In this document: positions 1 through 51,516 of the stretch, piece after piece
How positions within the stretch are numbered: the first letter of the stretch is position 1
How the letters are laid out: each line of letters opens with the position of its first letter
Virus record (IMG/VR): IMGVR_UViG_3300033232_000065
Span: 1-51,516 of that record
DNA: 51,516 nucleotides
DNA from: a virus
Taxonomy: Duplodnaviria > Caudoviricetes
Reading direction: 5' to 3' (one strand)
The notes under the pieces: model-generated
Told to the model about the DNA's origin: nothing
The model's input: only the letters and a program-made list of their open reading frames with translations
The model's database searches: none
Made by a program: the position numbers and the translations under genes

Positions 1-699
1 CTTGTAGGGGCTCACCCACAAGTTTCAAGAAGTAGTGCCGCCAAGGATGCAGGTCTTTCTCGGGACCAGAAGGTGACCGCCCTCCGGGTCGCGTCGGGGA
101 ACTGCTGAAGGAGATACCGGCCAAGGCCGGTTCCAGGTACGAGGTGGGGGGGCGCATCTCCACCTCGTCTCAGCGGGCCGAGGCCGCCCGGGACGCCGGG
201 CTATCCACCGACCAACGGAAGACCGCCCTCCGGGTCGCGTCGGGGAACTGCCGAAGGAGATACCGGCGCAACCGGGTAAGCGGACGGACCTCGTGGGGGC
301 GTCCCCACAAGGTTCAAGGGCAAGTGCCGCCCGGGCGGCCTCGGCCCGCTGAGACCGGTGGGGGGTCACCCCTCCACCGGTACTGGTGGCAAGCCGTTTC
401 TTCGCCTCCTCCTCGAAGTGCGGGTTGACCCCGAAGGCGGACGCGGCGTGGTCGCGGGCGTCGCCGGTGGCACCCCCCGGAATTTTTTCCGGAGGGTCAG
501 ACTTCACGCCGGCCAGCATTCTCTTCCTCGCCTCCCTCTCGTAGTGCGGGTTGACGCCGAAAGCGGAAGCGGCTTGATCGCGTGATCTCCCCTCTTCCGC
601 CTCGGGAATTTTTTCCACAGGCCGGGGGGTCTTTCCTCCGGTACTGGTGGCAAGCCGTTTCTTCGCCTCTCCCTCGAAGTGCGGGAGGGCGTCGGCGGC
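1..699. repeat. Tandem array of variant gene-fragment cassettes (type A = fragments of the 14035-14694 gene family; type B = fragments of the 11632-12720 gene family); truncated by the contig start
   Basis: A units (+): 1-97, 90-243, 236-335, joined at CGCGTCGG, plus an inverted partial A unit at ~331-381. B units (-): 376-424 (partial), 414-550, 540-699, joined at CG(A/T)AGTGCGGG. Matches to the phage genes: 236-335 vs revcomp 14382-14481 at 98/100; 58-97 vs revcomp 14331-14370 at 39/40; 420-459 identical to 12279-12318. Confidence 0.9.
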
Positions 700-736
700 A
701 TCTCGAATCTGCGCCGTAGAAGGCCCCCAGGAGCCC

Positions 737-1090
737 CTAGAGTCCACGATCGCCCTCTTCCCCGACCTCCGGCCCGGGGTTCGGAAGGAATCCCGCCTCG
801 ATCAGTTTCTTCCTGAAGACCCGGATCGTGCGGTTCATGATCCACCGTTCATGTTCCGTGTAGGCGTACCAGGAAATGTCCCGCGTGTAGAAGTCGAACA
901 CCAGCCCCGCGCCGCCGTCGCCGTTGGCCGATCTTTCCAACAGGTTGATGATGCTGATGGCCGTCTCGCGGACATCGTTGACGCGGCGGTCGGTCCACCC
1001 CTCGTTCTCCAGCCGGGCGGAGTGCGACCGGCGATAGGAGGACGTGACGCTGGCCGCAAAGTTTAACCAGCCTCTCGGACTTGACGGCAT
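737..1090 (-). CDS. Hypothetical protein (satellite-like segment)
   Basis: 117-aa ORF, RBS GGAGGT before ATG; no motif recognised. Confidence 0.6.
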   Translation of the reverse strand: MPSSPRGWLNFAASVTSSYRRSHSARLENEGWTDRRVNDVRETAISIINLLERSANGDGGAGLVFDFYTRDISWYAYTEHERWIMNRTIRVFRKKLIEAGFLPNPGPEVGEEGDRGL

Positions 1091-1493
1091 CGCACCTCCG
1101 TTACATCAGTGTTTTTCGATGAACTGCCAAGCCGCGCCGATCAAGGGTTGATGGGTTATAGATAATTCTGCATATCGTCAAATCACGATAACAAGATACT
1201 ATCCGTCAAATACAAGGGACGCTGTGATTTCGTCTGCGCGGCGGTCGCCGACGGGGGCGTCACCTTTTTTGAGAAGGGGAGCCCCCGCAGGGGCCCCCCG
1301 CGCTTGTTGCCGTCAACGATCCGGGGAATGAACCCATTTCGTGCGGCACTCCTGCTCCCCGGAACCGGCCACCCCGGGTCGGGTGAGGAAAGGGAGGAAC
1401 GCCCTCCCCGCCGAAAGGTTGCCCGGGGACCGCGGCGGACGCCCCCCGGGCGAGGCGTTGGAGACAGGGGCGATACCCTGACCGCCGCGAATG

Positions 1494-1718
1494 TCACAGC
1501 AGCTCCGTCTTTTCGCTGCCCTCGATGATCCGGGCTTTATTCCGGCGTTCGAGGTCCCGAGCATCGACGATCGGGAGGCGTGCACGATCTCCAGCTTTTT
1601 GCACCTCACCGGCGATGCGATAGCTAATTTTCGCGTCCGCCGGCACGATGCACTCGATCTCGATGGTGCGAGTCGGAAATCTCATCCTGTCCATTCCGGG
1701 TCGATCGAAGGGCTGCAT
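1494..1718 (-). CDS. Small capsid-associated protein, positional paralogue of 42842-43066
   Basis: Directly follows the capsid paralogue; weak pattern IEI..R..G....G......A.D.....KA shared with MKIEIIQRCRVRG...AYDRIGAKKAK. Confidence 0.55.
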   Translation of the reverse strand: MQPFDRPGMDRMRFPTRTIEIECIVPADAKISYRIAGEVQKAGDRARLPIVDARDLERRNKARIIEGSEKTELL

Positions 1719-2789
1719 TTAATTCACCCCCGTCGCGATCGCGAAGGCCGCCGTCCGGCGAACGAACACGTCGATGGACGCGAAGCCGATGATGCGGACC
1801 TGGCCTTCCTTCGACCTGGTTTTGTCGTCGATGAGAATTTCGATGCCCGGCCCCCACGTCGCGAGGACCACGCCCTCCTGGAAGTTCCCGAGGAGGATCG
1901 TCCCCGAGGGGATCGAAGTCGTCACGTACAGCGGACGCGCCATCAAGAGGTTGTCGTCGCCCACCATCATCACTTCCCCCCCGGAAATCTTCGGCCGCTT
2001 CCGGAGGATCTCCGCCACGTCAGGACTCGCAATCCACGCTGCGTTCTCCGTCCGGACGTTCCCGTCTTCGAGGACCTTGATCATCCCCGCGCCCGTGGAA
2101 AGCGAGAACCCCGCGCCGGGCCTGGAGTCGATCCCCGGGGTATTCAGGACGCCCGCCGGCTGCCCGTTGACTCCGGAGCCCGCGAAAAGCGCCGTGTCGA
2201 TCCCGGAGGCTAAGGCTCGCCGGACCATGCCTTTCAAAATCGGCTCCGTCGAGCGGCGCGCGCCGAGGAGCAACAGGTTTCTGCTGACCGGCGGGAGCAA
2301 GCAACCGATGGTGCGCGTGCGGAGGACGGCGGCTCCGAGGGACACGGGACTTTCGTCCGGCGCGTTTCCTTCCGTATCAAGCCAGTACCAGAGTCCGCTT
2401 CCGTCCTCCTTCGGGACCACCGCGTCTCCCACCAGGCCGGGCCAAACCTCGACGCCGAGCCGGTTCGCGAGTGCGACGGGGCCGAGCGCGGCCACGAAAT
2501 CATCCGGCCGGGTATTCTCCGCGACGAGGTACCCGCCGGCGGGGTCGGTGGTGATGTTCATGTCGCGGGCGATCGCCCTCGGCGGGATGTACTCCCCGAT
2601 CCGGGCGATCTCGATGTTTTTGAGCATCCCGAGCGAGGAAACGTAGCGACGCTCAGCGCGGCCCTCATCACCGTTTTCCAGGCAGTGCCGAACGTAGTGC
2701 AGGAGGGAGAAGGGCTCCTCCTTCCGTCCCGGCGGTTCAAACGTGATCCGGGAGCCGGGTTCGATCAGTTTTGCTTTGAGTGCAGTCAT
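1719..2789 (-). CDS. HK97-fold major capsid protein paralogue lacking protease/scaffold regions
   Basis: RDMNITTDPAGGYLV vs helper RDMNITTDTAGGFLV; GSGVNGQPAG vs GTGANGQPTG; VRIIGFASIDVFVR vs IRIVGYQSVDVGVR. Confidence 0.9.
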   Translation of the reverse strand: MTALKAKLIEPGSRITFEPPGRKEEPFSLLHYVRHCLENGDEGRAERRYVSSLGMLKNIEIARIGEYIPPRAIARDMNITTDPAGGYLVAENTRPDDFVAALGPVALANRLGVEVWPGLVGDAVVPKEDGSGLWYWLDTEGNAPDESPVSLGAAVLRTRTIGCLLPPVSRNLLLLGARRSTEPILKGMVRRALASGIDTALFAGSGVNGQPAGVLNTPGIDSRPGAGFSLSTGAGMIKVLEDGNVRTENAAWIASPDVAEILRKRPKISGGEVMMVGDDNLLMARPLYVTTSIPSGTILLGNFQEGVVLATWGPGIEILIDDKTRSKEGQVRIIGFASIDVFVRRTAAFAIATGVN

Positions 2790-2807
2790 TTCGTACCTTC
2801 CTTTCTG

Positions 2808-3545
2808 TCACGTATGACGTGACACTTTTTTATCGTTCTCGAACACCTCCGCGGCCTTCCGACCTTTCCGCCCCCGGGGGCCAGCCGGGAGAGGGGAGGG
2901 GGAATCGTCCTGCATATAAAGTTTCTCGATCTCGCGAATCATCATCTCGATCTTCGGATTCTCCGCAATCTGCTTCTCCAGGTGCTCGGCCCACCCGGGG
3001 ATTGCGAAGGACTCCCACGCCTTGCGGACCATCTTTCTCACCTCGGACGGCTTTTCTCCCGTGTTCACCGCGAGCCGGACATGAAATTCAGCGTAGGTGT
3101 GGTACAGGATGTCGGCCATGTGATCGTCGAATTTGTAAAGCGCCTCCCGCGTCGAATCACACTCGTGAGCGAGAACAACCAATTGAACGATGTTGTGGCG
3201 GAACGATTGCCGCAGCCTCGTGAACAGGTCGCACAAGGCGAAGTCCACCTCCGCCTTTTCGACCAATTCACCCTCGCGATGACGAAGCCGCAGTTCCCGG
3301 AGGCGGATCTCTACCCCGAGATTCTTCGCCCGGAGCGCGGCGAGCTTCCCGTCCGTCTTCGAGGTAGGAGACTTGTACTCCTTCACTAGCGCCCGGGTCG
3401 CGCCTACATCGATCCGGGGGGGGTCGTCGTCAGTCCACGCGACGGCTCCGGCCTGATCCCATCGCGTCACGCTGGACCGCGCCACACCTTCAAGGCGGGA
3501 AAGCTCGGCCAGGTTGCACACAGACTTACCGGTCTTTTTTGCCAT
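2808..3545 (-). CDS. terS: Terminase small subunit, lambda Nu1-like (second copy)
   Basis: N-terminal HTH (NLAELSRLEGVARSSVTRW) and LRELRLRHREGELVEKAEV motif; GGAGG RBS; directly downstream of the cos-like region. Confidence 0.75.
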   Translation of the reverse strand: MAKKTGKSVCNLAELSRLEGVARSSVTRWDQAGAVAWTDDDPPRIDVGATRALVKEYKSPTSKTDGKLAALRAKNLGVEIRLRELRLRHREGELVEKAEVDFALCDLFTRLRQSFRHNIVQLVVLAHECDSTREALYKFDDHMADILYHTYAEFHVRLAVNTGEKPSEVRKMVRKAWESFAIPGWAEHLEKQIAENPKIEMMIREIEKLYMQDDSPSPLPAGPRGRKGRKAAEVFENDKKVSRHT

Positions 3546-3608
3546 AAAACCTCCTTGTGTTGCGTGTTGCGGAAAAACAAAAATGTAATCGGCGAAGGAT
3601 AAGATCGG

Positions 3609-3655
3609 GGTCCGAATATACCCCTGACGCAACCTCGCCGGGAGTACCTAAGGTT
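3609..3655 (-). other. Putative cos/packaging initiation site
   Basis: Minus strand AGGTACTCCCGGCGAGGTTGCGTCAGGGGTATATTCGGACC just upstream of terS; resembles the lambda cosQ..AGGTTACG arrangement; imperfect inverted arms GTCAG/CGGAC. Confidence 0.5.
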
Positions 3656-3735
3656 AATCAAGCACTTACGCATGGTCCGCCATCCTCCCCTCCTTCCCCT
3701 CCTTCGCCTCCCTTTCGATGAGGTCTTCCTCCCGG
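3609..3735. repeat. 127-bp exact repeat of the contig end (51390-51516); circularisation overlap
   Basis: Base-by-base identity; length equals a common assembler k of 127. Confidence 0.95.
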
Positions 3736-7386: not shown

Positions 7387-8067
7387 TCAGGCTCCGATCC
7401 TTCTATCCTTGCCCGTCAATTCGATCACCCTGCACATTCCCGCAATCCGGGAGGCAATCCGATCCCCGACCTTTTCCGCGATCTCGTCAAGGGTCAGGTT
7501 GCTTGTAATGATCGTGTCCCGGCATTCGGAATACCGCTTGTCGATGATGATGTAGAGCGACTGGAGCGCAAACTCGCTGGCCTTCTCCGCGCCGAGGTCA
7601 TCCAGAACCACAAGGCTCGGCTTCGTGTACTGCCGGATGATGTCCATCTCCCTCCACTCGGCACCCTTCCGGAAGCTCTCCCGTAGCTCCAGCAGGAGGT
7701 TCGCGACGGTCGTGAACGTGTCGTACTCCTGCATCCCCGCGCTCATCAGCAGGGCGACGGCAAAATATGTCTTCCCGGTGCCTGGAGGGCCGTGAAGGAA
7801 CAACCCGCCGCTCTCCTTAGCCGTGCACAGACCCCAAAGCGCCTCATCGATCGACCGAGGGTCTACGTCAAGAAACCTTCTCGGCACCCCCGCGCACTCC
7901 GCCGTCCTCCTCTGCCGCTTTCGTGTTTCCTCCGGCGTCAGTAGTTTCGGCACGAACACCCGTGCTGATTCCGGCGTACTTTCCTGGACGGGCCTTGACG
8001 TTGCCAGTTTGAGCACTCGATCCATGCACGCCTTTGTTTCCGGATCCATTCCTTGTCTCCTTTTCAT
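7387..8067 (-). CDS. DnaC/IstB-like AAA+ helicase loader
   Basis: Walker A GPPGTGKT, Walker B VVLDDLG, TIITSN, RIASRI. Confidence 0.9.
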   Translation of the reverse strand: MKRRQGMDPETKACMDRVLKLATSRPVQESTPESARVFVPKLLTPEETRKRQRRTAECAGVPRRFLDVDPRSIDEALWGLCTAKESGGLFLHGPPGTGKTYFAVALLMSAGMQEYDTFTTVANLLLELRESFRKGAEWREMDIIRQYTKPSLVVLDDLGAEKASEFALQSLYIIIDKRYSECRDTIITSNLTLDEIAEKVGDRIASRIAGMCRVIELTGKDRRIGA

Positions 8068-8695
8068 TCAGGTACGCTTCAAAGTTTCCGGAAAACAACG
8101 TCTGAGGCCGCAGATAGGCGTCCATCTTCGGATCGCCCTTCCATTGGCCGCACTTCTTCTCGATCACCCGAAAGAATTGCTCAACCTGGAATCCCTCCTT
8201 CCACCTGGCGTGGATATGGGATCGGGTCGCCTTGCCTGAGTGTCTGAAGTTCTTTCCCGACATTTCGTTCAGGAAGGAAATGATTCTGTCATATGGGGGC
8301 GCATCGTCGGGCTTGCCCGACAATAGCTCTGTCTCTGTCTCTGTCTCTGTCTCTGTCTCTGTCTCTGTCTCTGTCTCTTGCTCTGGAGTAGCATTTTGAT
8401 ATCCGTCTGACATCAACGTGATATCATCTTGTATCAACCAATGAGATAGTTTGGTAAGTATTTGTATTAATTGCTTTTCTGAAATTCTGAGTCGAAACGC
8501 GAGTTTTTTTATGCTTGTGAGGTCGCCTTCATTCTCGGAAGCGATCAACCAGAGCATAATGAGGACTTTTGCTGATTGTGGGTCGAGTTCATGCCATTCG
8601 ACATCATCCAATAGCTCGCGGTAGAGTTTTATCCAAGGGGGGCGGCGGTCCTTGAAATGTTGAAACCGTTTCCAATTCTTAATTCGGATCGCCAT
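7868..8695 (-). CDS. Phage replication initiator
   Basis: N-terminal NWKRFQHFKDRRPPWIKLY, (ET)8 linker, C-terminal YLRPQTLF domain; upstream of the helicase loader. Confidence 0.85.
   Translation of the reverse strand: MAIRIKNWKRFQHFKDRRPPWIKLYRELLDDVEWHELDPQSAKVLIMLWLIASENEGDLTSIKKLAFRLRISEKQLIQILTKLSHWLIQDDITLMSDGYQNATPEQETETETETETETETETELLSGKPDDAPPYDRIISFLNEMSGKNFRHSGKATRSHIHARWKEGFQVEQFFRVIEKKCGQWKGDPKMDAYLRPQTLFSGNFEAYLNEKETRNGSGNKGVHGSSAQTGNVKARPGKYAGISTGVRAETTDAGGNTKAAEEDGGVRGGAEKVS
8327..8378. repeat. (CTCTGT)8 microsatellite encoding (ET)8
   Basis: Read directly from the sequence. Confidence 0.95.
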
Positions 8696-8807: not shown

Positions 8808-9482
8808 TCAGCCCCCCCGCTCGCCAGCCCTTGTCCTGCGGGCGTCTGCGGCCCCTGCGGGGGGGCCAGCCGGGCCGCTTGCGGGGGGTAGATCTTTATC
8901 TTTAAAAGGAGTCGGAGTCGGAGTCGGGGCATTGCGGTTTGTATGCGGCTCGCATAAACCTTCGCGTTCTTGCGGGGTTGCGGATGGCTCTCCGGTGACT
9001 CCGGTTGTGCCTATTTCCGGCTTTTCGACCCCTGTGGATAACTCTGCCGCATTGCGGTTTGTATGCGGTCTCGATGCGCCTCGTATGCGCCTCGTAGAAT
9101 CTCTTTTGATTCCAACACTCTGCCACTTTGAGTGCGCACCTATTTTTGCCGCTTCGGACCGCCTTTTTGATCCAAACGCCCACGGTTGGTGCTCCGGCCA
9201 GTCGTGAACCGATAACACCCCCTCGGGGCTTACGTCGACCCACCGCTTGCTCGTCGCATACGAGGTGAATGCACCCGGCATCCCGGTCCACTCTGCGATC
9301 GCCTCAAGGTCGTCGAGACCGACCCCCTCGAGCACCCCCTGGGGGTGTCTTTCCCGGGTGTAGCACCACAGACAAAACAGGCTGACGATCCCCTGGGACC
9401 CGAGCGCGGCCACGAGCTTCCGGGTCTTCAGGTTCCGGAAGAAAGCAACGTCCAACCGGATGTCGATCGGGGTGACGCTCAT
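8808..9482 (-). CDS. Second replication-initiator-like protein (N-terminal domain plus iteron region)
   Basis: IRLDVAFFRNLKTRKL...LWCY...HDWPEHQPWA, PTPTPTP linker, internal 20-bp direct repeats. Confidence 0.65.
   Translation of the reverse strand: MSVTPIDIRLDVAFFRNLKTRKLVAALGSQGIVSLFCLWCYTRERHPQGVLEGVGLDDLEAIAEWTGMPGAFTSYATSKRWVDVSPEGVLSVHDWPEHQPWAFGSKRRSEAAKIGAHSKWQSVGIKRDSTRRIRGASRPHTNRNAAELSTGVEKPEIGTTGVTGEPSATPQEREGLCEPHTNRNAPTPTPTPFKDKDLPPASGPAGPPAGAADARRTRAGERGG
8929..9068. promoter_or_regulatory. Iteron-like direct repeats flanking a perfect DnaA box
   Basis: GCATTGCGGTTTGTATGCGG at 8929-8948 and 9049-9068; TGTGGATAA at 9033-9041. Confidence 0.55.
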
Positions 9483-9652
9483 CGGGGGACACTTGGCGGG
9501 GGTGGTGGAGCGGGTCGGTGCACGAGCACGTTGTCGATGTGGACGCCAGCGTACCCGATCCGGCGAACGTACCCGACCAGGGTCCAGCCTTGCTTCTCTA
9601 ATTCCTCGAGGCGGGCGCTCCCGATCAGGTGGTACTCGCCCGCGTGGTTCAT
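9479..9652 (-). CDS. Small hypothetical protein
   Basis: 57 aa, ATGA overlaps on both sides. Confidence 0.5.
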   Translation of the reverse strand: MNHAGEYHLIGSARLEELEKQGWTLVGYVRRIGYAGVHIDNVLVHRPAPPPPPSVPR

Positions 9653-10851
9653 CCCCCGGCCTCCATGTACGCTCTCACGAACGCTTCCGCCACTGGTGCG
9701 ACGATGGCGTTTCCATATCCCCTTAGTCGCATTGCCCTCGCTTCCGCCGTCGCGTCTGGATCAAACGATGCGATCGAATCGCCGCCTCGCACCACTCGGG
9801 AGGAAGCCCCATCAACCAGCGGGAATGTGCCGGGTTCAATTGGCCTGTCTTTCCCGTCACGGCAGGGGATCCAGATGGCGTCTCGCCAGAAGCCGTTGCA
9901 AGAACCGCGAAGTTCCGGAGGGGTTGATCGCAAGTCCGCATCTCGGGCGTTCCCACGCGCCCCCTCACGTTCGGCCCGTCGCTCTTGTGATCCTCCGTGG
10001 TCGGCGTCGGCCACGAGGCGAGCACCGCCGTCCTGCCCAACAAGGCGTTTACTGGAACATTCTGACAACTGTGCGCATCTCCGTCCTTGTGGTCCCTCGT
10101 TGTCGGCGTCGGCCATGATGCCAGCATCGACACCACAGACAGCGACGGCCCCTTGTTCCTCGCCACCTCGTTCATCGCGCCGTCTTCCGTTCGAGATTCC
10201 TTCTCCGCTTCGGATGCTTTCGGCGTCGGCCAGGGGGCCAAGGCTTGGGCCGTCCACGCCAGATTGCTCCCGCTGTTCGAGCGGTTTAGTTGTTTCTGCG
10301 AGTACGATTGTGGATCGGAAGCTCGACTTGCATTGTTGTCCGCCACTTGCGGCGTCGGCCACGAAGTACAGCCGCTGCCGGATGTGCGGCGCACCGAAGC
10401 CCGCAGCGCAAAGATCGACCGCCCCAATGGCGTAACCCGCTCCTTCCATGTCAGCGTATACAGAGTCGAGCCAAGCGAGTCCGTCTTTGCTCGCAACCTG
10501 CTCGCCAAAGACGACGCGAGGACGGCAGACGGAGATGAGCCGGAAGAAATCGGGCCAAAGGTGGCGCACGTCGTCTGTTCCTCTGTGCTTCCCTGCCGCG
10601 CTAAACGGCTGGCAGGGGCAGGAGCCGGTCCACACGGGGCGGTCGTCGGGCCATCCAGCGCGGCGGAGGGCGTAGGACCAGACCCCGACCCCGGCGAAGA
10701 AGTGATGTTGGGTGTATCCCATAAGGTCGCTTGCCTGGACATCCTGTATGCTCCTTTCATCAACCACCCCCTCGGCGATATGCCCCCGCTTTATCAGTTC
10801 CCGCAGCCACGCGGCGGCCTTCGGATCGTTCTCCGAATAATATGCGGTCAT
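9649..10851 (-). CDS. C5 cytosine DNA methyltransferase, alpha polypeptide
   Basis: FFAGVG (I), GSCPCQPFS (IV), EQV (VI), HIRQRLYF (VIII), LRGYGNAI (X). Confidence 0.92.
   Translation of the reverse strand: MTAYYSENDPKAAAWLRELIKRGHIAEGVVDERSIQDVQASDLMGYTQHHFFAGVGVWSYALRRAGWPDDRPVWTGSCPCQPFSAAGKHRGTDDVRHLWPDFFRLISVCRPRVVFGEQVASKDGLAWLDSVYADMEGAGYAIGAVDLCAAGFGAPHIRQRLYFVADAASGGQQCKSSFRSTIVLAETTKPLEQREQSGVDGPSLGPLADAESIRSGEGISNGRRRDERGGEEQGAVAVCGVDAGIMADADNEGPQGRRCAQLSECSSKRLVGQDGGARLVADADHGGSQERRAEREGARGNARDADLRSTPPELRGSCNGFWRDAIWIPCRDGKDRPIEPGTFPLVDGASSRVVRGGDSIASFDPDATAEARAMRLRGYGNAIVAPVAEAFVRAYMEAGG
9723..10742 (-). CDS. Alternative-frame C5-MTase beta polypeptide with four WPTP repeats
   Basis: Own RBS AAAGGAG before ATG 10742; four WPTP units; LNPAHSRWLMGLP; arrangement as in M.EcoHK31I. 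Confidence 0.75.
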   Translation of the reverse strand: MSRQATLWDTPNITSSPGSGSGPTPSAALDGPTTAPCGPAPAPASRLARQGSTEEQTTCATFGPISSGSSPSAVLASSLASRLRAKTDSLGSTLYTLTWKERVTPLGRSIFALRASVRRTSGSGCTSWPTPQVADNNASRASDPQSYSQKQLNRSNSGSNLAWTAQALAPWPTPKASEAEKESRTEDGAMNEVARNKGPSLSVVSMLASWPTPTTRDHKDGDAHSCQNVPVNALLGRTAVLASWPTPTTEDHKSDGPNVRGRVGTPEMRTCDQPLRNFAVLATASGETPSGSPAVTGKTGQLNPAHSRWLMGLPPEWCEAAIRSHRLIQTRRRKRGQCD

Positions 10852-11126
10852 ACCAGCATCATCTCCGACGTCGCGTCCCTCGATAGTTCCGCGAGTCGCG
10901 CCGCGCCCCTCGCCGCCGGGAATGATCTTGGCTTCGCGGGCCGCTTCCGTGGCGGGATGATCAGGCCGAGTTCGTGTGCGAATTCCTCGATGGTCCAGTG
11001 CCGGGCCGGTATGTTCACCAGTGGATGCCAGGCCCGGATGGAGATGCGCCGCCTGCGGTTCTTGCACGTGGATTCGATCGCGCAGCCGACCGGGTCGCTG
11101 GACGGGGCCCCAATGCGGATCATCAC
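10848..11126 (-). CDS. Hypothetical protein
   Basis: GTGA/ATGA overlaps with both neighbours. Confidence 0.5.
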   Translation of the reverse strand: MMIRIGAPSSDPVGCAIESTCKNRRRRISIRAWHPLVNIPARHWTIEEFAHELGLIIPPRKRPAKPRSFPAARGAARLAELSRDATSEMMLV

Positions 11127-11659
11127 GTTCTCCGCAGCGGGTTGCATTCGGACTTTTGAAGGAAGAGATTTCCTGTTCTCCCGGCGGGTGCGTCGCACTT
11201 TACCTGTATCCGTTTCTTACAGAACAGGAGGATATCCGTCCCTTTGATCTGTACGTCCTGCCGCTTGTCCTCTTCGGCGTCCATCCAGATCGGGAACCGC
11301 CCGCGCCGCATCAACTCGACGACGCACTGGACGGCGAACTTGCCTTTTTGTGAAGTGCTCATCGCTTCCGAAAACTCGCTCCATTTCGGGTAGGACTCGA
11401 AACGCAGGGTCCGCATGTCTTCTACCCATTCGATACGAACAAGCCATCCTTCCGCTGTAACGCCATTCACTCCGTTTTGCGTTGCTTTGCCGAGTCGTGG
11501 GCTGTGCCGCTTGATCGCTTCAATTCCGTTCCTCGTGGGGAAGACGTATACCCTCTTCTCGAAAGGCGAGACGTGGGCGCGGATGTCACTATTCTCCTCG
11601 AAGATCCCATGCTCAAAGAGCGGAGGAGCTTCTACAGTTGGTTGCCCCAGTGCTCCCAT
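11123..11659 (-). CDS. Putative PD-(D/E)XK nuclease
   Basis: DVQIKGTD...IQVKCD....TGNLFLQ motif; overlaps the end of the MT-A70 gene. Confidence 0.6.
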   Translation of the reverse strand: MGALGQPTVEAPPLFEHGIFEENSDIRAHVSPFEKRVYVFPTRNGIEAIKRHSPRLGKATQNGVNGVTAEGWLVRIEWVEDMRTLRFESYPKWSEFSEAMSTSQKGKFAVQCVVELMRRGRFPIWMDAEEDKRQDVQIKGTDILLFCKKRIQVKCDAPAGRTGNLFLQKSECNPLRRT

Positions 11660-12720
11660 CCCCTCGCCTTCGCCCGTGCAAATAGTTCGATCCGTTTCCC
11701 GTGCGTATAAAGTTTGTCGATCAGTTCGCGGAAACGTTCCGGCTTCACGGAATGTTCCGTGCGCTCGATGGAGACAACGCTGTCGTGCAGTTCCTTCGCG
11801 TCGGGGGTACAGGATCCCCGCGTGGCGATGAGGAGAAATTCGTGGCGTACGCTGTTGTAATGCCCGAAGTTGTGCTTCACCTTGTCCCATACGAAAGAGG
11901 ACTTGTAGCGGAAGCCCCAAGCGCCGATGACTTTGAGCGCGTCTTCGAGTAGCGGGGATGTCGCCCATAGGAACAGGACGGCGTTTTCGTCCGCCATGTC
12001 TCGTATCGGAAGATCGCAGATCGCCTGCAGGGTCATCGTCGGGTAGTGGTGGTCCGGTTGCGGATACCCTTTCAGTGCCTCTCCGTATTTGTTCCCGTAC
12101 TCCCACGGCGGGTCCGCGTACAGGACGCGGTACTTGGCCTTCGGCATCGGTGCGGGGTCTTTCGCCTCCCGCCGTCGCAGTTCCTTGGCGGCATGCGGCA
12201 TTTTCATCTCGCCCGTGCGGACTTTCGCCGCGATGTCCGGTGCGCGCTCCTGGAGGGCTTTTGCGTTGGAGACGTAGCGCGGGTTGACCCCGAAGGCGGA
12301 CGCGGCGTGGTCGCGGGCTTGTAAAAGGTCAGGAATTTTTTCCTTACCTTTCTCCGCTGGCCTTCCGGGTGCAGACTTCTTCCCGGCGTCTGACATCCGC
12401 GCCTTCGCCTCCCTCTCGTAGTGCGGGAGAGCGTCGGCGGCGGCCATCGCACGCTGCGCCGCTGTCAGGTGCCTCCGTTTCAGGTTCAGGGAGACAACGA
12501 AGGAGACGGCGGACGGGCCGCGCCATTCGCGGAACTTCGGCTCGATCTTCAATTCACGACAGGCGCGGTATCGGTTGCGCCCGTCGAGGATCTTCCCCTC
12601 GTAAGTCCAGATCGGCTCGATCAGGCCGTTTTCGCGGATATCGTTTTTCAGGGAGTCGTATTCCTCCCCGGACATCATCGGGAAGATGGAGGCGACGGGG
12701 TGAAAGTCTGGGCGGGTCAC
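11632..12720 (-). CDS. ParB-N/HTH/MT-A70 adenine methyltransferase fusion
   Basis: ILDGRNRYRAC (ParB box), NLKRRHLT, HTH ARDHAASAFGVNPRYV, YADPPW, LFLWAT, HSVKPE, RIELFAR. Confidence 0.92.
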   Translation of the reverse strand: MTRPDFHPVASIFPMMSGEEYDSLKNDIRENGLIEPIWTYEGKILDGRNRYRACRELKIEPKFREWRGPSAVSFVVSLNLKRRHLTAAQRAMAAADALPHYEREAKARMSDAGKKSAPGRPAEKGKEKIPDLLQARDHAASAFGVNPRYVSNAKALQERAPDIAAKVRTGEMKMPHAAKELRRREAKDPAPMPKAKYRVLYADPPWEYGNKYGEALKGYPQPDHHYPTMTLQAICDLPIRDMADENAVLFLWATSPLLEDALKVIGAWGFRYKSSFVWDKVKHNFGHYNSVRHEFLLIATRGSCTPDAKELHDSVVSIERTEHSVKPERFRELIDKLYTHGKRIELFARAKARGWEHWGNQL

Positions 12721-12959: not shown

Positions 12960-13010
12960 CATTTGTACCATTGGTCCTATATGGTTGTCAATACCTGTAC
13001 CGCTGGTATT
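12960..13010 (-). promoter_or_regulatory. Leftward promoter with two operator-like sites
   Basis: TTGACA on the minus strand at 12986-12991; TGTACCATTGGTCCT 12964-12978 and TGTACCGCTGGTATT 12996-13010. Confidence 0.65.
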
Positions 13011-14034: not shown

Positions 14035-14694
14035 TCACGTCACCTCCATTATCCTGATAAGGGTTGAAAGCCAATCAAAACACAGGCGCGTATTTTTCAA
14101 AATATTATCCTTCTCGTGTGTCTCCAACCCGGCCAGAAAATACTCTGAGGTGATCCCATCTATGTCACGGGACAATCGGCCAATGGTTCCGCCGATCCTT
14201 GTGGCGACGGCGAAGTTTTCAGGAGGGACGGTGTGCTTGAAAGGAGTCTTCTTCGTTCCGATTTCCGCCAGCCCCGTCACGGTGGGCGGCTCGTCCGATT
14301 CCACCATCTGCTCGAATACGTCCTTCGGCACCGACGCGACTCGGAGGGCGGTCACCTTCTGGTCCCGAGACAGGCCCGCGTCCCGAGCGGCACTTGCCCT
14401 TGAACCTTGTGGGGACGCCCCCACGAGGTCCGTCCGCTTACCCGGTTGCGCCGGTATCTCCTTCAGCAGTTCCCCGACGCGGAGCATGGCGCGGGCCTGG
14501 ATGCGGTCTGCACATTTGCGGAGAGTGTTGTCTCCCGCCTGCTTCGCGTAGGAGGCGATGGCCTCGGCCTTGTTCGCCCAATCCTTGCACTCATCCAGGC
14601 GAGAACACTTTTCAATCGCGGCTCTGGCGTTCTTGTACGTCTCCGGAAGCATCGCCCCCGCTATCTGTGATTCCTTGACCGGGAGTGTGTTCAC
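14035..14694 (-). CDS. Putative DNA-binding protein (helical N-domain, variable linker, HTH-like segment)
   Basis: DECKDWANKAEAIASYAKQA...RIQARA..RVGELL, then AARDAGLSRDQKVTALRVA; source family of the type A cassettes. Confidence 0.8.
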   Translation of the reverse strand: MNTLPVKESQIAGAMLPETYKNARAAIEKCSRLDECKDWANKAEAIASYAKQAGDNTLRKCADRIQARAMLRVGELLKEIPAQPGKRTDLVGASPQGSRASAARDAGLSRDQKVTALRVASVPKDVFEQMVESDEPPTVTGLAEIGTKKTPFKHTVPPENFAVATRIGGTIGRLSRDIDGITSEYFLAGLETHEKDNILKNTRLCFDWLSTLIRIMEVT

Positions 14695-14878: not shown

Positions 14879-14947
14879 ATCCTACAGGAAAATATTTCCC
14901 GTGTCAATATTATTTTGTTGACAAACATTTTCCGTTTCTTGTAGTAT
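14879..14947. promoter_or_regulatory. Back-to-back sigma70 promoters
   Basis: Minus: TTGACA(14907-14902)-17-TAGGAT; plus: TTGACA(14918)-18-TAGTAT; both spacers contain AAAYATTTTCC. Confidence 0.7.
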
Positions 14948-43066: not shown

Positions 43067-43139
43067 CGTCGGACCCTCCTGTGGAGCCAGGCGGGGGGAA
43101 AGCCCCCCGCCTGTCCTGGTATCGAATGCCACGGCCCGA

Positions 43140-45092
43140 TTACGACAGGTCGGTGGCGAGGGTGAACGCGCCGGCCTGCCGGACACCCACGTCAACGCTC
43201 TGATACCCGACGATGCGGATCCCGCCGGAGGTCGAGAGCGACTTGTCGTCGACGTTGATGTCAAGGACGCCCCACTCGCCGATGATCGCCTGCAGGAAGT
43301 CACCGAAGAACAGGTACTGCGCGGTGATCTGCGTCGAGGTGAGGACCGGGAATCCGGCCATGCGATCATCGTCGCCGCACAGGTACACGGGGTACCCCGC
43401 GGTCCCCTTCTCGCGGGTCTTCAGGATCCCCCACGAGGTCGGGTTGCAAACCCAGTTCATCCCGGGCTTCTCTGCGTTCGCGTTCATTACGTCGGTGAGC
43501 GCGGAGATGGCGAGGATCCACGAGAAGGTCGCGCCGGTGAACGCGCCGCCGGCGGCCGTCGCGATGCCGGTCGGCTGCCCGTTCGCCCCGGTGCCGTGGA
43601 ACACGGCGAGGTCGATCATCCGGGCGAGGACCTTGACGAGACTGTTCAGCACGATGTTGTCGGCCGCCGGCGCCGACTGCTTCATGAGGTTCCGGGTGAT
43701 GTCCACCCAGGCGGCGACGTTCTTAAGCGAGAGCGTCACCTGACCGACGGTCCCCTGGCTCTCCGTCGGAGGGTTGCCTTCCGTCTCGATCCAGTACCCG
43801 GTCGGGTCCGCGGTCTCCTTCGGGATGGCGACGTTGCCGACGAGGCCGGACATGATCTGCACGCCGGCGGCAGCGGCTACGAGCTTCGCCCGAAGCAACT
43901 CGATGAACGATCCCGCCATGTGCTGCGTCCCGACGAGGAACCCGCCGGCGGTGTCGGTGGTGATGTTCATGTCGCGCCGGTTGCGCGGCGCCGTCATGAT
44001 GTCGTACGGCAGGTAGAAGGACCGGGACTCCGATCCCACCTGCTTTGCGACCTGGTCCGAGCACTCCTTCTCGAAGGGCGCATCCCGCCAGTCCTTGGTC
44101 GTCGCGGCCCGGATCGCCCGGAGGATGCTGTACCGCTGCGCCTCGTTGTGCGTGAGGCCGATCTCCCCCAACGGCGTGTACAGGGGCTTGGAGTTGGTTC
44201 CGTCGTTGATGCGGTTAAGGACGATGCCGCGGAACTCCTCGATGGTCGTCCCCTTCTGCTCCGCCATGTCCACGATGCGGACCGGCAGGCCGTGGCGGGA
44301 GGCCAGCTCGCGGATCTCCTTCATGCGCGCCCGCTCCTTCTGGGTCGCGTCATCGGCCGCCTTCACGCGGTCCGCCTTCATTTCCAACTCGACTTCTTCA
44401 AGCGTCTTGGTGTCGGGCATTTCCCGTTCCTCCTTTTTTTGTCCGGAAACTATTGAGGCCCCCGAAGGGGCCTCGCTTGACTGCTTGTTTTCGCCCGGCG
44501 GGATGCCGGGTGGCTTGACCTCGCTGCCCTCCTGCCCTCCGCCGGGTTCTGCGGTCCGTCCGACGCCAACCGTCGGGTCCGCAGGTACCGTGACGAACGA
44601 ACATTCATAGGGCTCCCAATCCGTGATCCGATAGACCGGCAGTTTCTCCCGAGCCGCCATCTCCATCAGGTCAGGTGTCATCTTCTTCGGATCCATCTCC
44701 TTCATGAAGTGGATCTCGTATCCCACGGAAACGTCTTTCAGAATGCCGTCCTCTACATCGCGCAGTTTCTCCGCGGCTAGCGGCCCCTGGCCGAACCGCG
44801 CGGTCCCGCGTCCGACCTTGTCATCGTCGCACCGGCAGTCCGTCAGGATCCCGAGATGTTCGCTGCGCCCATGATTGAACAGGACGGCGATCCCGTCTTT
44901 TGCCCTGTCCATCCGCATCGCGCCAGGGGAGTGGTCAAGGATCTCGATCCCCCACCAGCGGACGTACGGAAGCTCAGACGAGAAGGCGAGATCGACGGTC
45001 CTTTCCGTTGCCTTTACCGTCGCCCGGTCGAGTTGGAACGTTCTCCTCATCGGCTCCTTCTTCAGCTTCGTCAGTAACTCCCTGATCTCCAT
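43140..45092 (-). CDS. Prohead protease-major capsid protein fusion (HK97 fold)
   Basis: LFNH, VSVGY, WEPYECSFVTVPAD protease motifs followed by the capsid domain. Confidence 0.92.
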   Translation of the reverse strand: MEIRELLTKLKKEPMRRTFQLDRATVKATERTVDLAFSSELPYVRWWGIEILDHSPGAMRMDRAKDGIAVLFNHGRSEHLGILTDCRCDDDKVGRGTARFGQGPLAAEKLRDVEDGILKDVSVGYEIHFMKEMDPKKMTPDLMEMAAREKLPVYRITDWEPYECSFVTVPADPTVGVGRTAEPGGGQEGSEVKPPGIPPGENKQSSEAPSGASIVSGQKKEEREMPDTKTLEEVELEMKADRVKAADDATQKERARMKEIRELASRHGLPVRIVDMAEQKGTTIEEFRGIVLNRINDGTNSKPLYTPLGEIGLTHNEAQRYSILRAIRAATTKDWRDAPFEKECSDQVAKQVGSESRSFYLPYDIMTAPRNRRDMNITTDTAGGFLVGTQHMAGSFIELLRAKLVAAAAGVQIMSGLVGNVAIPKETADPTGYWIETEGNPPTESQGTVGQVTLSLKNVAAWVDITRNLMKQSAPAADNIVLNSLVKVLARMIDLAVFHGTGANGQPTGIATAAGGAFTGATFSWILAISALTDVMNANAEKPGMNWVCNPTSWGILKTREKGTAGYPVYLCGDDDRMAGFPVLTSTQITAQYLFFGDFLQAIIGEWGVLDINVDDKSLSTSGGIRIVGYQSVDVGVRQAGAFTLATDLS

Positions 45093-46542
45093 CGCTCTTC
45101 CCTCCGTATTCGAATTCCAGGCCATACTTCGCTGCGAGTTCCTTCTCCGCCTTAAGCTCCTGATACAACTCCTCGATGTCTCCGCCGTTCTCGCTGATGA
45201 CCTGCGTCGAGCTCTTGAAGCCGGACTTCACCGCCTCCTGGTATGCCTTCACTTCCTCGAGTGGTTTCACCCAGGACCATCGCCGCCCGGTCCATGCGGG
45301 GACGTTGAACTTGTTGTACTTCGAGAAGGGCAGGATGACCGCGCCGGACATGAGCGCCATGTACAGCCACTCGGCGTATACCCGGTCGAGGAACATTTCG
45401 ATGAACCACGACTGGAGACTCTTCCAGGTCTCCCGCTCCTCCAGAAGTCCCGCTCGGATCGACGAGAAATTGACATCCGTCAGATCGTTCGACAGCGAGG
45501 AGAAGGAAACGCCCAGTCCCGAGGAGATCCCACGCAGGATCGATTTCACGAAGGGATCAAACTGCGCCTCCGGATACTTCGGATCGAATCCCTGGAACTC
45601 CTTATCCCCGATGTCCTCGAACGTCCCGGGTTCGCAGGTGACGGTCATATTCCCGGAGGCGTCTATCGCATCGCCTTTGTAGGCATCGTCCCCTCCGGGA
45701 GTGCGGAAGAAGCCGAGTTTATTCGCTCCCGCCCGGGCGTTGATGATCGCGCCTTCCACGTACCCTTTGAGGTCGTGGAGCGACAGCATCGCCGGGGCCA
45801 TCCAGGAGATCCCCCGGGTCTGGTCCGCACGCTCCGGATCGAACACGTGGATCATGTCGGAGGCCGGGACCGCGGTCCGCGGGCCGGACGGGACGATGTA
45901 CCCGTACACATCTATGCCCTTGGGGCGCTGGCTCACGTGATACGCCACGGGACGCCGCCATGAGTCGGTCTCGACGCCCATCCGTACGATGTTCCCGTTC
46001 GGGAGTTCCGTGCTGTACTTCTCGTCGATCCAATCCGGCTCGATGAGTTGGAGCGAGAAGGAGTACCGGTTGATGTTCGCACCCCGGACCAGCCGGATGA
46101 ACATCTCCCCGTCCCGGGCCACCGTCTCGACGATGATTTCCTGCGCCTTCCGGAAGGAGATGTTCCCCGCGACGGTGGCGGTCGCGGGCTTTCCCCAATC
46201 GTAGAAGGCGTTCTCGAGGATCGTATTCGCAAGATGGTCCGGCTCGGGCTCCCCGTTCTTGTAATCCATCGCCTTGACCTGGAGCGCGAATCCCTCGCTA
46301 CCGACGACGTTCTTCTTAACCGCCCGCAGATACGCCCGCACGTACTCGTTGTTCTGGCTCAAATCCCGCGCACGGGATCGGACCTTCACGAGTCCGGACC
46401 GGATGTCCTGGTCGATGGATGTCGCGCCGGAGATCCAATCGGCGGTCAGGCGCCCCATCTTCGCGGCGGCGTAGGCGCGGCGACCGGATCTTCTCGGCGA
46501 TCCCTGAAGAACGAACAGCAGGCGTTCAAGAAATCCCATCAC
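44974..46542 (-). CDS. Portal protein, lambda family
   Basis: RSRARDL..NN, GVE.D.W.RPVAY, QTRGISW, VNFSSIR, WSWVKPLEE. Confidence 0.93.
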   Translation of the reverse strand: MMGFLERLLFVLQGSPRRSGRRAYAAAKMGRLTADWISGATSIDQDIRSGLVKVRSRARDLSQNNEYVRAYLRAVKKNVVGSEGFALQVKAMDYKNGEPEPDHLANTILENAFYDWGKPATATVAGNISFRKAQEIIVETVARDGEMFIRLVRGANINRYSFSLQLIEPDWIDEKYSTELPNGNIVRMGVETDSWRRPVAYHVSQRPKGIDVYGYIVPSGPRTAVPASDMIHVFDPERADQTRGISWMAPAMLSLHDLKGYVEGAIINARAGANKLGFFRTPGGDDAYKGDAIDASGNMTVTCEPGTFEDIGDKEFQGFDPKYPEAQFDPFVKSILRGISSGLGVSFSSLSNDLTDVNFSSIRAGLLEERETWKSLQSWFIEMFLDRVYAEWLYMALMSGAVILPFSKYNKFNVPAWTGRRWSWVKPLEEVKAYQEAVKSGFKSSTQVISENGGDIEELYQELKAEKELAAKYGLEFEYGGKSDGDQGVTDEAEEGADEENVPTRPGDGKGNGKDRRSRLLV

Positions 46543-51389: not shown

Positions 51390-51516
51390 GGTCCGAATAT
51401 ACCCCTGACGCAACCTCGCCGGGAGTACCTAAGGTTAATCAAGCACTTACGCATGGTCCGCCATCCTCCCCTCCTTCCCCTCCTTCGCCTCCCTTTCGAT
51501 GAGGTCTTCCTCCCGG
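51390..51516. repeat. Terminal copy of 3609-3735
   Basis: Exact 127-bp identity. Confidence 0.95.

Follow-up and report, generated by a model that had tools for sequence, protein, structure and literature searches.

Covarying palindromes in linker codons beside the helix-turn-helix of two phage protein families as candidate cis-acting sites

In the phage record IMGVR_UViG_3300033232_000065, analyzed over its whole length of 51,516 nt (hereafter the window), two resident genes, A and B, each carry a palindrome, or dyad, in the codons of a variable linker directly upstream of the segment that encodes a helix-turn-helix (HTH). Partial copies of both genes, with their linker palindromes, form an array at positions 1-747 of the window. 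These palindromes are genuine, and they belong to both protein families rather than only to the window. Their arms covary, and their sequences follow those of the neighboring HTH. We give an even chance to the proposal that the dyad is a cis-acting DNA site recognized by the protein encoded around it, in other words a putative private docking site similar to parS or to an operator.

Dyads of the window were scored allowing at most one mismatch and a loop of at most 12 nt. This gave twelve dyads with 10 or more pairs, among them both resident sites and another four within the first 760 nt, a stretch for which chance predicts 0.18 (Table 1). The only other copy of the resident A dyad in the window is the exact reverse complement at 288-313. 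A sequence-only reading of the window had reported a palindrome in every full cassette of the array and in both resident genes, and all the coordinates and sequences that it gave hold. The palindromes are strong at 139-168, 288-313, 354-381 and 472-497 and in the resident genes. They are weak at 1-22, where 5+3 pairs and one bulged base are cut by the contig start, and at 605-616, where 7 of 9 positions are paired and two mismatches stand side by side. The same reading had taken GGAATTTTTTCC, found at 479-490 and in resident gene B at 12332-12343, for the B-type palindrome. This element consists of 4-bp arms around TTTT and is not a true palindrome by itself; the real B dyads are longer and enclose it, at 472-497 in the array and at 12324-12351 in the resident gene. 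The resident linkers exceeded synonymous resampling at p=0.01 for both A and B and from codon permutation at p=0.005 for A, and 0 of 200 permutations matched the linker of B.

To cover the two families we used the DNA of 79 of 80 viral loci for A (L026, a second copy in one record, was omitted) and of 50 loci with a match reaching the N-terminal part for B (47 of L102-L181 together with L009, L010 and L019), which with the window make 68 and 51 distinct genes, respectively. Duplicates and linkers shorter than 30 nt or longer than 200 nt were dropped from the linker controls. Palindromes are enriched in the linkers of both families over codon-shuffled controls, a comparison that the sequence-only reading had named as able to overturn its proposal. 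The best inverted repeat of the A linkers (n=67) averages 9.13 pairs; synonymous resampling lowers this to 5.78 and codon permutation to 5.45, and p≤0.05 is reached by 40 of 67 and 45 of 67 linkers, respectively. The corresponding values for the B linkers (n=47) are 10.28, 5.75 and 5.39 pairs, with 32 of 47 and 34 of 47 linkers at p≤0.05. With minimum free energy in place of stem pairing as the measure, the test had less force: 9 of 66 linkers reached p≤0.05, and the mean z was -0.67. The position of the dyads is also conserved. A dyad of 9 pairs or more exists in 46 of 68 A genes, and in 40 of these the strongest dyad in the gene has its center at P0001 residues 87-94; in B one exists in 39 of 51 genes, and in 29 of these the center is at P0002 residues 112-131, with stems as long as 21 bp. 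Going outward from the axis, complementarity is about 0.5 at distances 1-2, reaches 0.8-1.0 at 3-13 and is down to 0.2-0.3 beyond 16, which corresponds to arms of about 13 bp around a center of about 4 nt and a total of about 26-30 bp. Pairing drops at distance 5 from the axis, and in most A genes the axis falls exactly at a codon boundary. A full-text literature search found no description of linker-embedded palindromes in the A or B family.

The arms of the dyads change together. Ungapped, axis-anchored alignments were made of 53 of the 68 A genes and, for B, of the 23 even-centered dyads among 35 of the 51 genes. In A, 83% of the cells are paired against 52% after shuffling, and in B 86% against 50%, percentages that are inflated because the alignments took only genes with a dyad of at least 9 pairs, which leaves the variety of pair types unaffected. 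The covariation score is 0.73 against 0.20 in A and 0.86 against 0.20 in B, and none of 500 shuffles scored as high in either family. Partners slid out of register gave 0.11-0.21 in A and 0.11-0.23 over both families, and each arm position changes on both sides. The compensatory arm changes that had been noticed in the window thus recur across the homologues of A and B. The dyad varies specifically with the HTH: in partial Mantel tests the correlation of site with HTH given the N-domain is r=0.33 in A and r=0.38 in B (p=0.0005 in each), that of site with N-domain given the HTH is 0.06 in A and 0.05 in B, and the methyltransferase domain of B gives -0.10. Taken together, the reverse partial correlations and those of the downstream and methyltransferase segments range from -0.10 to 0.07. 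Inner arms are common to an HTH class, S-E-R-Q going with GGGACGG/CCGTCCC, S-[RK]-D-Q with GTGGGG/CCCCAC and VSHDTI.K with CAGA[AT]/[AT]TCTG. By eye, no consistent motif that could be a methyltransferase target was found inside the dyad, and this candidate was dropped.

Genomes of six relatives, four rated as 100% complete, were examined together with the window. The dyad occurs once in each of the six and, the array copy aside, once in the window, and its half-sites are not repeated above chance. These seven genomes were ranked for palindromes of at least 11 pairs. The linker dyad comes first in G001 and G050 and second in G014, and the resident B dyad and the array dyad at 354-381 are in the top three of the window, where the resident A dyad, with 10 pairs, falls below the threshold. 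The lists for G003, G009 and G049, which begin at 11 pairs, do not include the linker dyad. In another phage (L193, the record of L036) the strongest palindrome, at 12960-12991, lies in a different open reading frame (ORF) with tandem peptide repeats of the GNSSVVAR type, about 1 kb upstream of the A-family gene.

The A protein matches phrog_33995 (E=1.4e-37) and has 468 homologues at E≤1e-5. Its AlphaFold2 model is all-helical (predicted local distance difference test score 83), with residues 79-98 devoid of secondary structure. Foldseek found nothing at E≤0.001 for this model in the PDB, a PDB sequence profile search gave nothing useful, and tblastn against GenBank phages gave no match; as a lead only, its structural neighbors in the ESM Atlas include clusters fused to Mom and Dam domains. 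The B protein matches MT-A70 (E=4.7e-22), and its residues 16-171 match phrog_4715, 'ParB-like partition protein' (E=5e-12); inspection by eye shows a DGRNRYRA motif. Viral contigs contain at least 575 ParB-N/MT-A70 relatives. Aligned with hhalign, residues 92-134 of A and 121-170 of B place linker and HTH in register, a weak match (probability 2.5%, E=0.018). In both proteins the helix that precedes the linker is similar to the recognition helix (MLRVG and ALRVA in A, PHYEREAKA and PRYVSNAKA in B). No ParA-like family was found among the 55 window ORFs scanned, a scan that included no search aimed at ParA. Replication-type genes sit elsewhere, at 7868-8695 and 8808-9482, so that neither A nor B is the replication initiator.

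The best-supported reading, drawn from the covariation, is that each gene would hold its own site beside its HTH, and it is from this pattern that we infer binding and function. The sequence-only reading had likewise proposed a parS- or operator-like site next to the HTH-coding region of each gene. The location of the dyad directly upstream of the HTH codons and its specific covariation with the HTH agree with this; a site for a dimer leaves the paired, variable outer arms unexplained. Such a site could serve autoregulation or the loading of a ParB-like methyltransferase onto the phage's own genome, and its place inside the gene, beside the HTH codons, would keep reader and site together through phage recombination. 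The inner arms alone look class-specific. Because the outer arms stay paired though they vary within a class, action as an extruded hairpin or cruciform, or templated quasi-palindrome correction tolerated in an unconstrained linker, is kept in the picture. Several points, besides the inflation of the pairing percentages, weigh against a cognate site. Within one HTH class the outer 7 nt of the arms vary yet stay complementary, which a dimer site does not need, and in A widely varying arms go with a fairly conserved recognition helix. The HTH is the coding segment nearest to the dyad, so close linkage in mosaic phages may contribute to the Mantel signal. A single site per genome, inside an ORF, would be an odd placement for an operator; 22 of the 68 A genes and 12 of the 51 B genes have no dyad of at least 9 pairs, and in the homologues from the phages Rivra and vB_MseS-P1 the dyad comes after the HTH, not before it. 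Finally, P0001 matches no Pfam family above the cut-off and its HTH segment alone (residues 95-150) matches nothing at E≤10, and P0002 stays below the cut-off for both PF02195 ParB_N (E=0.0037; 17.7 bits, cut-off 26.3) and PF17762 HTH_ParB (E=0.11; 13.1 bits, cut-off 22.6).

The array lies in a particular part of the record. Since the final 127 nt of the window exactly repeat an internal stretch and the sequences to the left of the two copies differ at once, we read the record as a circle (3609-51389, about 47.8 kb) and a 3608-nt tail that joins it at 3609. The cassettes at 1-747 are permuted tandem copies of a [linker+HTH] unit. On the plus strand, 1-334 holds three head-to-tail copies of the gene A segment that begins with GELLKEIPA, includes the linker and ends with ALRVAS; a period of 146 nt puts these copies in frames 1, 3 and 2 in succession. 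They meet at the 8-nt repeat CGCGTCGG, which by eye is present at both ends of the segment in the resident gene. The junction between A units occurs twice, over 47 nt at 98% identity, with different interiors. The unit at 236-335 is 98% identical to the resident gene and includes two segments, of 32 and 40 nt, that are 100% identical. Beyond a change of strand, an inverted partial A cassette is followed by B units with a 126-nt period, joined at GTAG[TC]GCGGG, which encodes P-[HR]-Y; the ORF that contains them (25-747) begins 11 nt ahead of the point where the gene upstream of it (737-1090) stops. As the helix before the linker resembles the recognition helix in both genes, each unit amounts to one linker and one complete HTH.

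Similar arrangements recur elsewhere. A search with the B-array ORF over 1.84 billion representatives returned P0132 (E=1.6e-64, 82% identity), of which P0281, from an independent 111-kb NCBI/JGI contig of another assembly, is a longer gene call. In P0132/P0281, B1 and B2 stand in the same order as in the window, preceded by a resident-type unit and one more unit. P0263/P0282 has four in-frame units inside an otherwise intact ParB-N gene, and P0133, P0134 and P0140 are also multi-unit. About 23 of 149 other proteins listed have at least two matched stretches, and three of these 23 (P0149, P0203 and P0240) look like unrelated repeat proteins. These other arrays are known from protein sequences, P0132 being unmatched in genome_contigs and metagenome_contigs and P0263 in genome_contigs and viral_contigs. 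When the B loci were translated in all six frames and scanned with a small hidden Markov model of the unit, no locus with several units emerged, but the model is too narrow for this to count as a test. Judged from these protein sequences, units have truly multiplied in family B, and have done so repeatedly. In family A, the linker of A2 is the resident allele of a full-length gene elsewhere (P0124, 82% identical), and the linker alleles of P0125 and P0127 resemble those of A4' and A1, respectively. Extra partial copies were found in none of the records of 50 A-family relatives (50 of 80 loci submitted), where the same search finds three in the window. A greedy comparison of ORF neighborhoods in the relatives was uninformative in this high-GC DNA. 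Cassette exchange is possible but unsupported for gene A.

In connection with the proposed cognate site, unequal recombination at a short repeat, provided by the likeness of the pre-linker helix to the recognition helix, could multiply the whole [site+HTH] unit, and the array would then be a mosaic of such units with alleles from related phages, in a neighboring or defective element. The idea that a cassette moves a site and a specificity determinant as one unit, put forward in the sequence-only reading, agrees with the span of each unit over a linker and a whole HTH; set against it are the A units, mutually out of frame, the location of the array outside the phage circle and its absence from the 50 A relatives. 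An extension that we consider improbable is that palindrome and HTH make up a portable, self-addressed specificity module: each DNA-modifying or ParB-like phage protein would load only at the private site of its own gene and mark or handle its own genome in cis, and recombination would multiply or swap units, giving multi-HTH proteins and multi-site genes. The array, with units from several phage lineages, would in that case be the site-and-reader collection of a resident element that captures or titrates the proteins of incoming phages, as piracy or defence.

The dyad could alternatively be an RNA hairpin in a sense or antisense transcript that affects mRNA stability, processing, termination or ribosome pausing at the domain boundary, which we hold to be unlikely. 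Arm covariation without sequence conservation fits an RNA hairpin, as does the stem-loop geometry, with a less constrained 4-nt center between arms of about 13 bp; dyads of AT-rich relatives (L049, L086) resemble bidirectional terminators, and in B the antisense fold is the more stable one in 27 genes against 13 (p=0.04). No such strand preference is present in A (29 against 28 genes). Mismatches on the sense strand are more often A.C (52) than G.T (17), and on the antisense strand each A.C would become a G.U pair; this bias speaks against a hairpin in the sense mRNA, and the A.C excess may reflect avoidance of T-rich codons. Complementarity at the center, about 0.5, exceeds the baseline of 0.26, and pairing is perfect across the center (loop 0) in 21 of the 58 dyads of A and 11 of the 44 of B. 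Moreover, the resident dyads are not among the terminator-like sites (GC-rich stem and T run), no Rfam family matches at the gathering score, and an RNA hairpin leaves the link between inner arm and HTH class unexplained. It also seems to us improbable that the dyad is functionless, that is, a seed palindrome from Gly (GGN)/Pro (CCN) or E-K-I-P codons that is extended or kept perfect by templated quasi-palindrome correction in a peptide-tolerant linker. Templated correction is an established mutational route. A mutational by-product fits the axis at a codon boundary in most A genes, and is in keeping with a dyad center that encodes G-x-x-P or E/Q-K/N-I/S, with the unstructured linker of the AlphaFold2 model and with outer arms that vary freely yet stay paired. 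The sequence-only reading had seen in the compensatory changes a sign of selection on the DNA or RNA; the pattern is present, but templated correction yields the same one. A by-product is harder to reconcile with the same fixed position and arms of 9-21 bp in two families, among homologues at 35-50% identity, with dyads that far exceed peptide-preserving controls and are among the strongest palindromes of the whole genome in several relatives, and with covariation that involves the HTH class and not other domains. Nothing comparable is seen in the other disordered stretches of these genes; only 6 of 46 (A) and 10 of 39 (B) best dyads lie outside the linker.

Two further explanations concern the array. 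We regard as quite unlikely that the dyad is a hot spot for breakage or slippage, through hairpin-stimulated template switching or as a nuclease target, and that the array is a silent-cassette store for programmed variation of the resident genes. The near identity of the unit at 236-335 to the resident gene, with its fully identical segments, points to recent exchange; tandem unit arrays recur in the B family, array units carry linker alleles that are resident in other contigs, the junctions lie at short repeats flanking the dyad (CGCGTCGG and GTAG[TC]GCGGG), and a palindrome marks the point where the strand changes. Such a store is at odds with the absence of an extra partial copy from all 50 A-family records, compared with three cassettes found in the window, with the position of the array outside the phage circle and with the finding of no recombinase or nuclease linked to it. 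That the array, as distinct from the resident dyads, is an assembly or amplification chimera at the contig tip appears very unlikely. It is true that it stands at the free end of a 3608-nt tail on a circle closed by exactly 127 nt, much like an assembler overlap, that all its junctions are microhomologies, one of them a strand switch, and that the 24-mer of the A-A junction has 0 matches in viral_contigs and a tail 35-mer beside the array 0 in metagenome_contigs. However, the independent 111-kb contig encodes B1 and B2 in the same order plus two further units, the A-A junction occurs twice with different interiors, which random chimeras do not produce, and all repeats within the array are shorter than 127 nt. 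Other candidates were also considered. A diversity-generating retroelement was discarded as there is no reverse transcriptase among the Pfam hits. The occurrence of the dyad as a single copy, at a fixed place within two gene families, was the ground for dropping an array of clustered regularly interspaced short palindromic repeats, an integron attC site and a serine-recombinase site as candidates.

The window is the whole IMG/VR record, which is classed as linear with a CheckV completeness estimate of 100%. Its genes include those for a gpA-type large terminase, a protease-capsid fusion and the tail, and its early region contains HTH regulators, two methyltransferases and replication genes. 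The overlap of exactly 127 nt looks like an assembler k-mer. The tail carries a second capsid-like gene (minus strand), whose product is 34% identical to the capsid part of 43140-45125 and has no relatives in a viral_contigs search, and a second, longer TerS-like gene (minus strand). It could belong to a satellite, a defective neighboring prophage or a variant phage. A prophage junction at 3609 is a conceivable reading that was set aside, no integrase family and no tRNA being found among the ORFs scanned. Elsewhere in the record, a CTCTGT repeat run (8315-8391; five copies in a 12-nt register) lies between or inside early genes, and a 32-nt motif occurs three times at 9985-10364, with 75-100% identity and spacings of 102 and 246 nt, inside the C5-methyltransferase ORF 9649-11067. 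The strongest dyad of the window (43086-43115; 12 pairs, G/C-rich) is directly downstream of the capsid gene and is probably a terminator. Divergent promoter-like sites (TTGACA, spacers of 17 and 18 nt) are located at 14879-14947, directly upstream of the operon headed by gene A.

Table 1 Resident genes, dyads, array units and end repeat of the window.
Feature	Position	Strand	Description
Resident gene A (P0001, 219 amino acids)	14035-14694	-	helical N-domain, disordered linker, HTH, helical C-domain
Resident A dyad ACCTTGTGGGGACGCCCCCACGAGGT	14404-14429		10 pairs, 1 mismatch; encodes D-L-V-G-A-S-P-Q-G
Resident gene B (P0002, 362 amino acids)	11632-12720	-	ParB-N-like domain, linker, HTH, MT-A70 methyltransferase
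Resident B dyad AAAGGTCAGGAATTTTTTCCTTACCTTT	12324-12351		11 pairs, 1 mismatch; over codons K-G-K-E-K-I-P-D-L
Array dyad	139-168		10 pairs
Array dyad	288-313		10 pairs
Array dyad	354-381		11 pairs
Array dyad	472-497		10 pairs
Cassette A1 LVGAHPQVSRSSAAKDAGLSRDQKVTALRVAS	1-96	+	frame 1; cut by contig start; weak dyad 1-22; 81% identical to reverse complement of 14331-14427
Cassette A2	96-242	+	frame 3; one full 146-nt unit; dyad 139-168
Cassette A3	242-334	+	frame 2; 98% identical to resident gene; dyad 288-313; ends at strand switch
Perfect 14-nt palindrome GCCGCCCGGGCGGC	326-339		matches itself; array changes strand here
Inverted partial cassette A4' TGGGVTPHRSQRAEAARA	330-381	-	dyad 354-381; fused in frame to B units at microhomology CCNCCGGT
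In-frame B array	373-747	-	inside ORF 25-747
B array leader	676-747	-	truncated copy of resident TAAQRAMAAADALPHY
Unit B1	541-675	-	EKIP dyad 605-616, weak
Unit B2	415-540	-	dyad 472-497
Partial B unit	373-414	-	
Exact 127-nt repeat	3609-3735 = 51390-51516		second copy is the record's final 127 nt; closure overlap of circle and branch point of tail
Tail outside closed circle	1-3608		contains array, P0004 (737-1090), small ORFs, capsid-like gene 1719-2789, TerS-like gene 2808-3632

If the dyad is a cognate site, two large uncharacterized phage families would gain a testable cis target, and the covariation table would be a candidate recognition code. It would suggest how ParB-fold methyltransferase fusions, whose role is left open in the part of PMC12704722 available to us, find the phage's own DNA. 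It would also represent a second, widespread case of the logic of lambda O and ori, with reader and site kept within a single unit of recombination. The feature is also present in cultured phages: in Agrobacterium phage Rivra gp59 (L210 1848-1868) and Mesorhizobium phage vB_MseS-P1 gp19 (L209 1869-1889) a 21-nt dyad lies over V-D-G-G-E-I-(S/P)-H, the two dyads differing by one compensatory pair. In vB_MseS-P1 a stand-alone ParB-N/HTH paralogue, gp18, is directly upstream of gp19.

The origin of phage lambda lies inside gene O, where dyad-symmetric repeats occupy the part that codes for a flexible linker beside the DNA-binding domain of the very protein that binds them, with four iterons and an AT-rich stretch. 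The present families resemble it in having a candidate cis site within the linker codons of the presumed binder, at a fixed position in both, such that site and specificity would be inherited together. They differ in that there is a single dyad per gene, upstream of the HTH, and that the proteins are not the replication initiator. In the pilE/pilS and vlsE systems, silent cassettes are used for gene conversion. The array is similar to these in its partial, promoterless, variable copies with conserved flanks and short repeats, distant from the expressed gene. In contrast to them, its A units are frame-shifted and one is inverted, it lies outside the circle, it is absent from 50 of 50 A relatives, and B-type arrays recur in other contexts. 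Rickettsia palindromic elements, which are in-frame in genes, multicopy and mobile, are another instance of palindromic DNA tolerated inside ORFs as extra surface or linker peptide, whereas the linker dyad is single-copy, positionally homologous in each family and different in sequence in every lineage. Proteins with a ParB-type fold read a palindrome with their HTH, as in KorB and its operator OB; parS measures 16 bp, and one parS lies inside spo0J, in Bacillus subtilis. ParB-parS systems also involve CTP-dependent clamping at the site and ParA as partner ATPase. The B dyads of L130, L159, L164 and L165 begin with TGTT and end with AACA, like the parS consensus. Here, however, the dyads span 24-30 bp, occur once per genome and lie in linker codons, B is fused to MT-A70, and A is without a ParB N-domain. 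The main text of PMC12704722 contains none of the terms 'palindrom', 'parS-like' and 'own gene'. According to the part of that work available to us, which describes no cognate site for the phage fusions of a ParB-CTPase fold to a DNA methyltransferase, these fusions are enriched in prophages and anti-defence roles are suggested for them; gene B appears to share their architecture.

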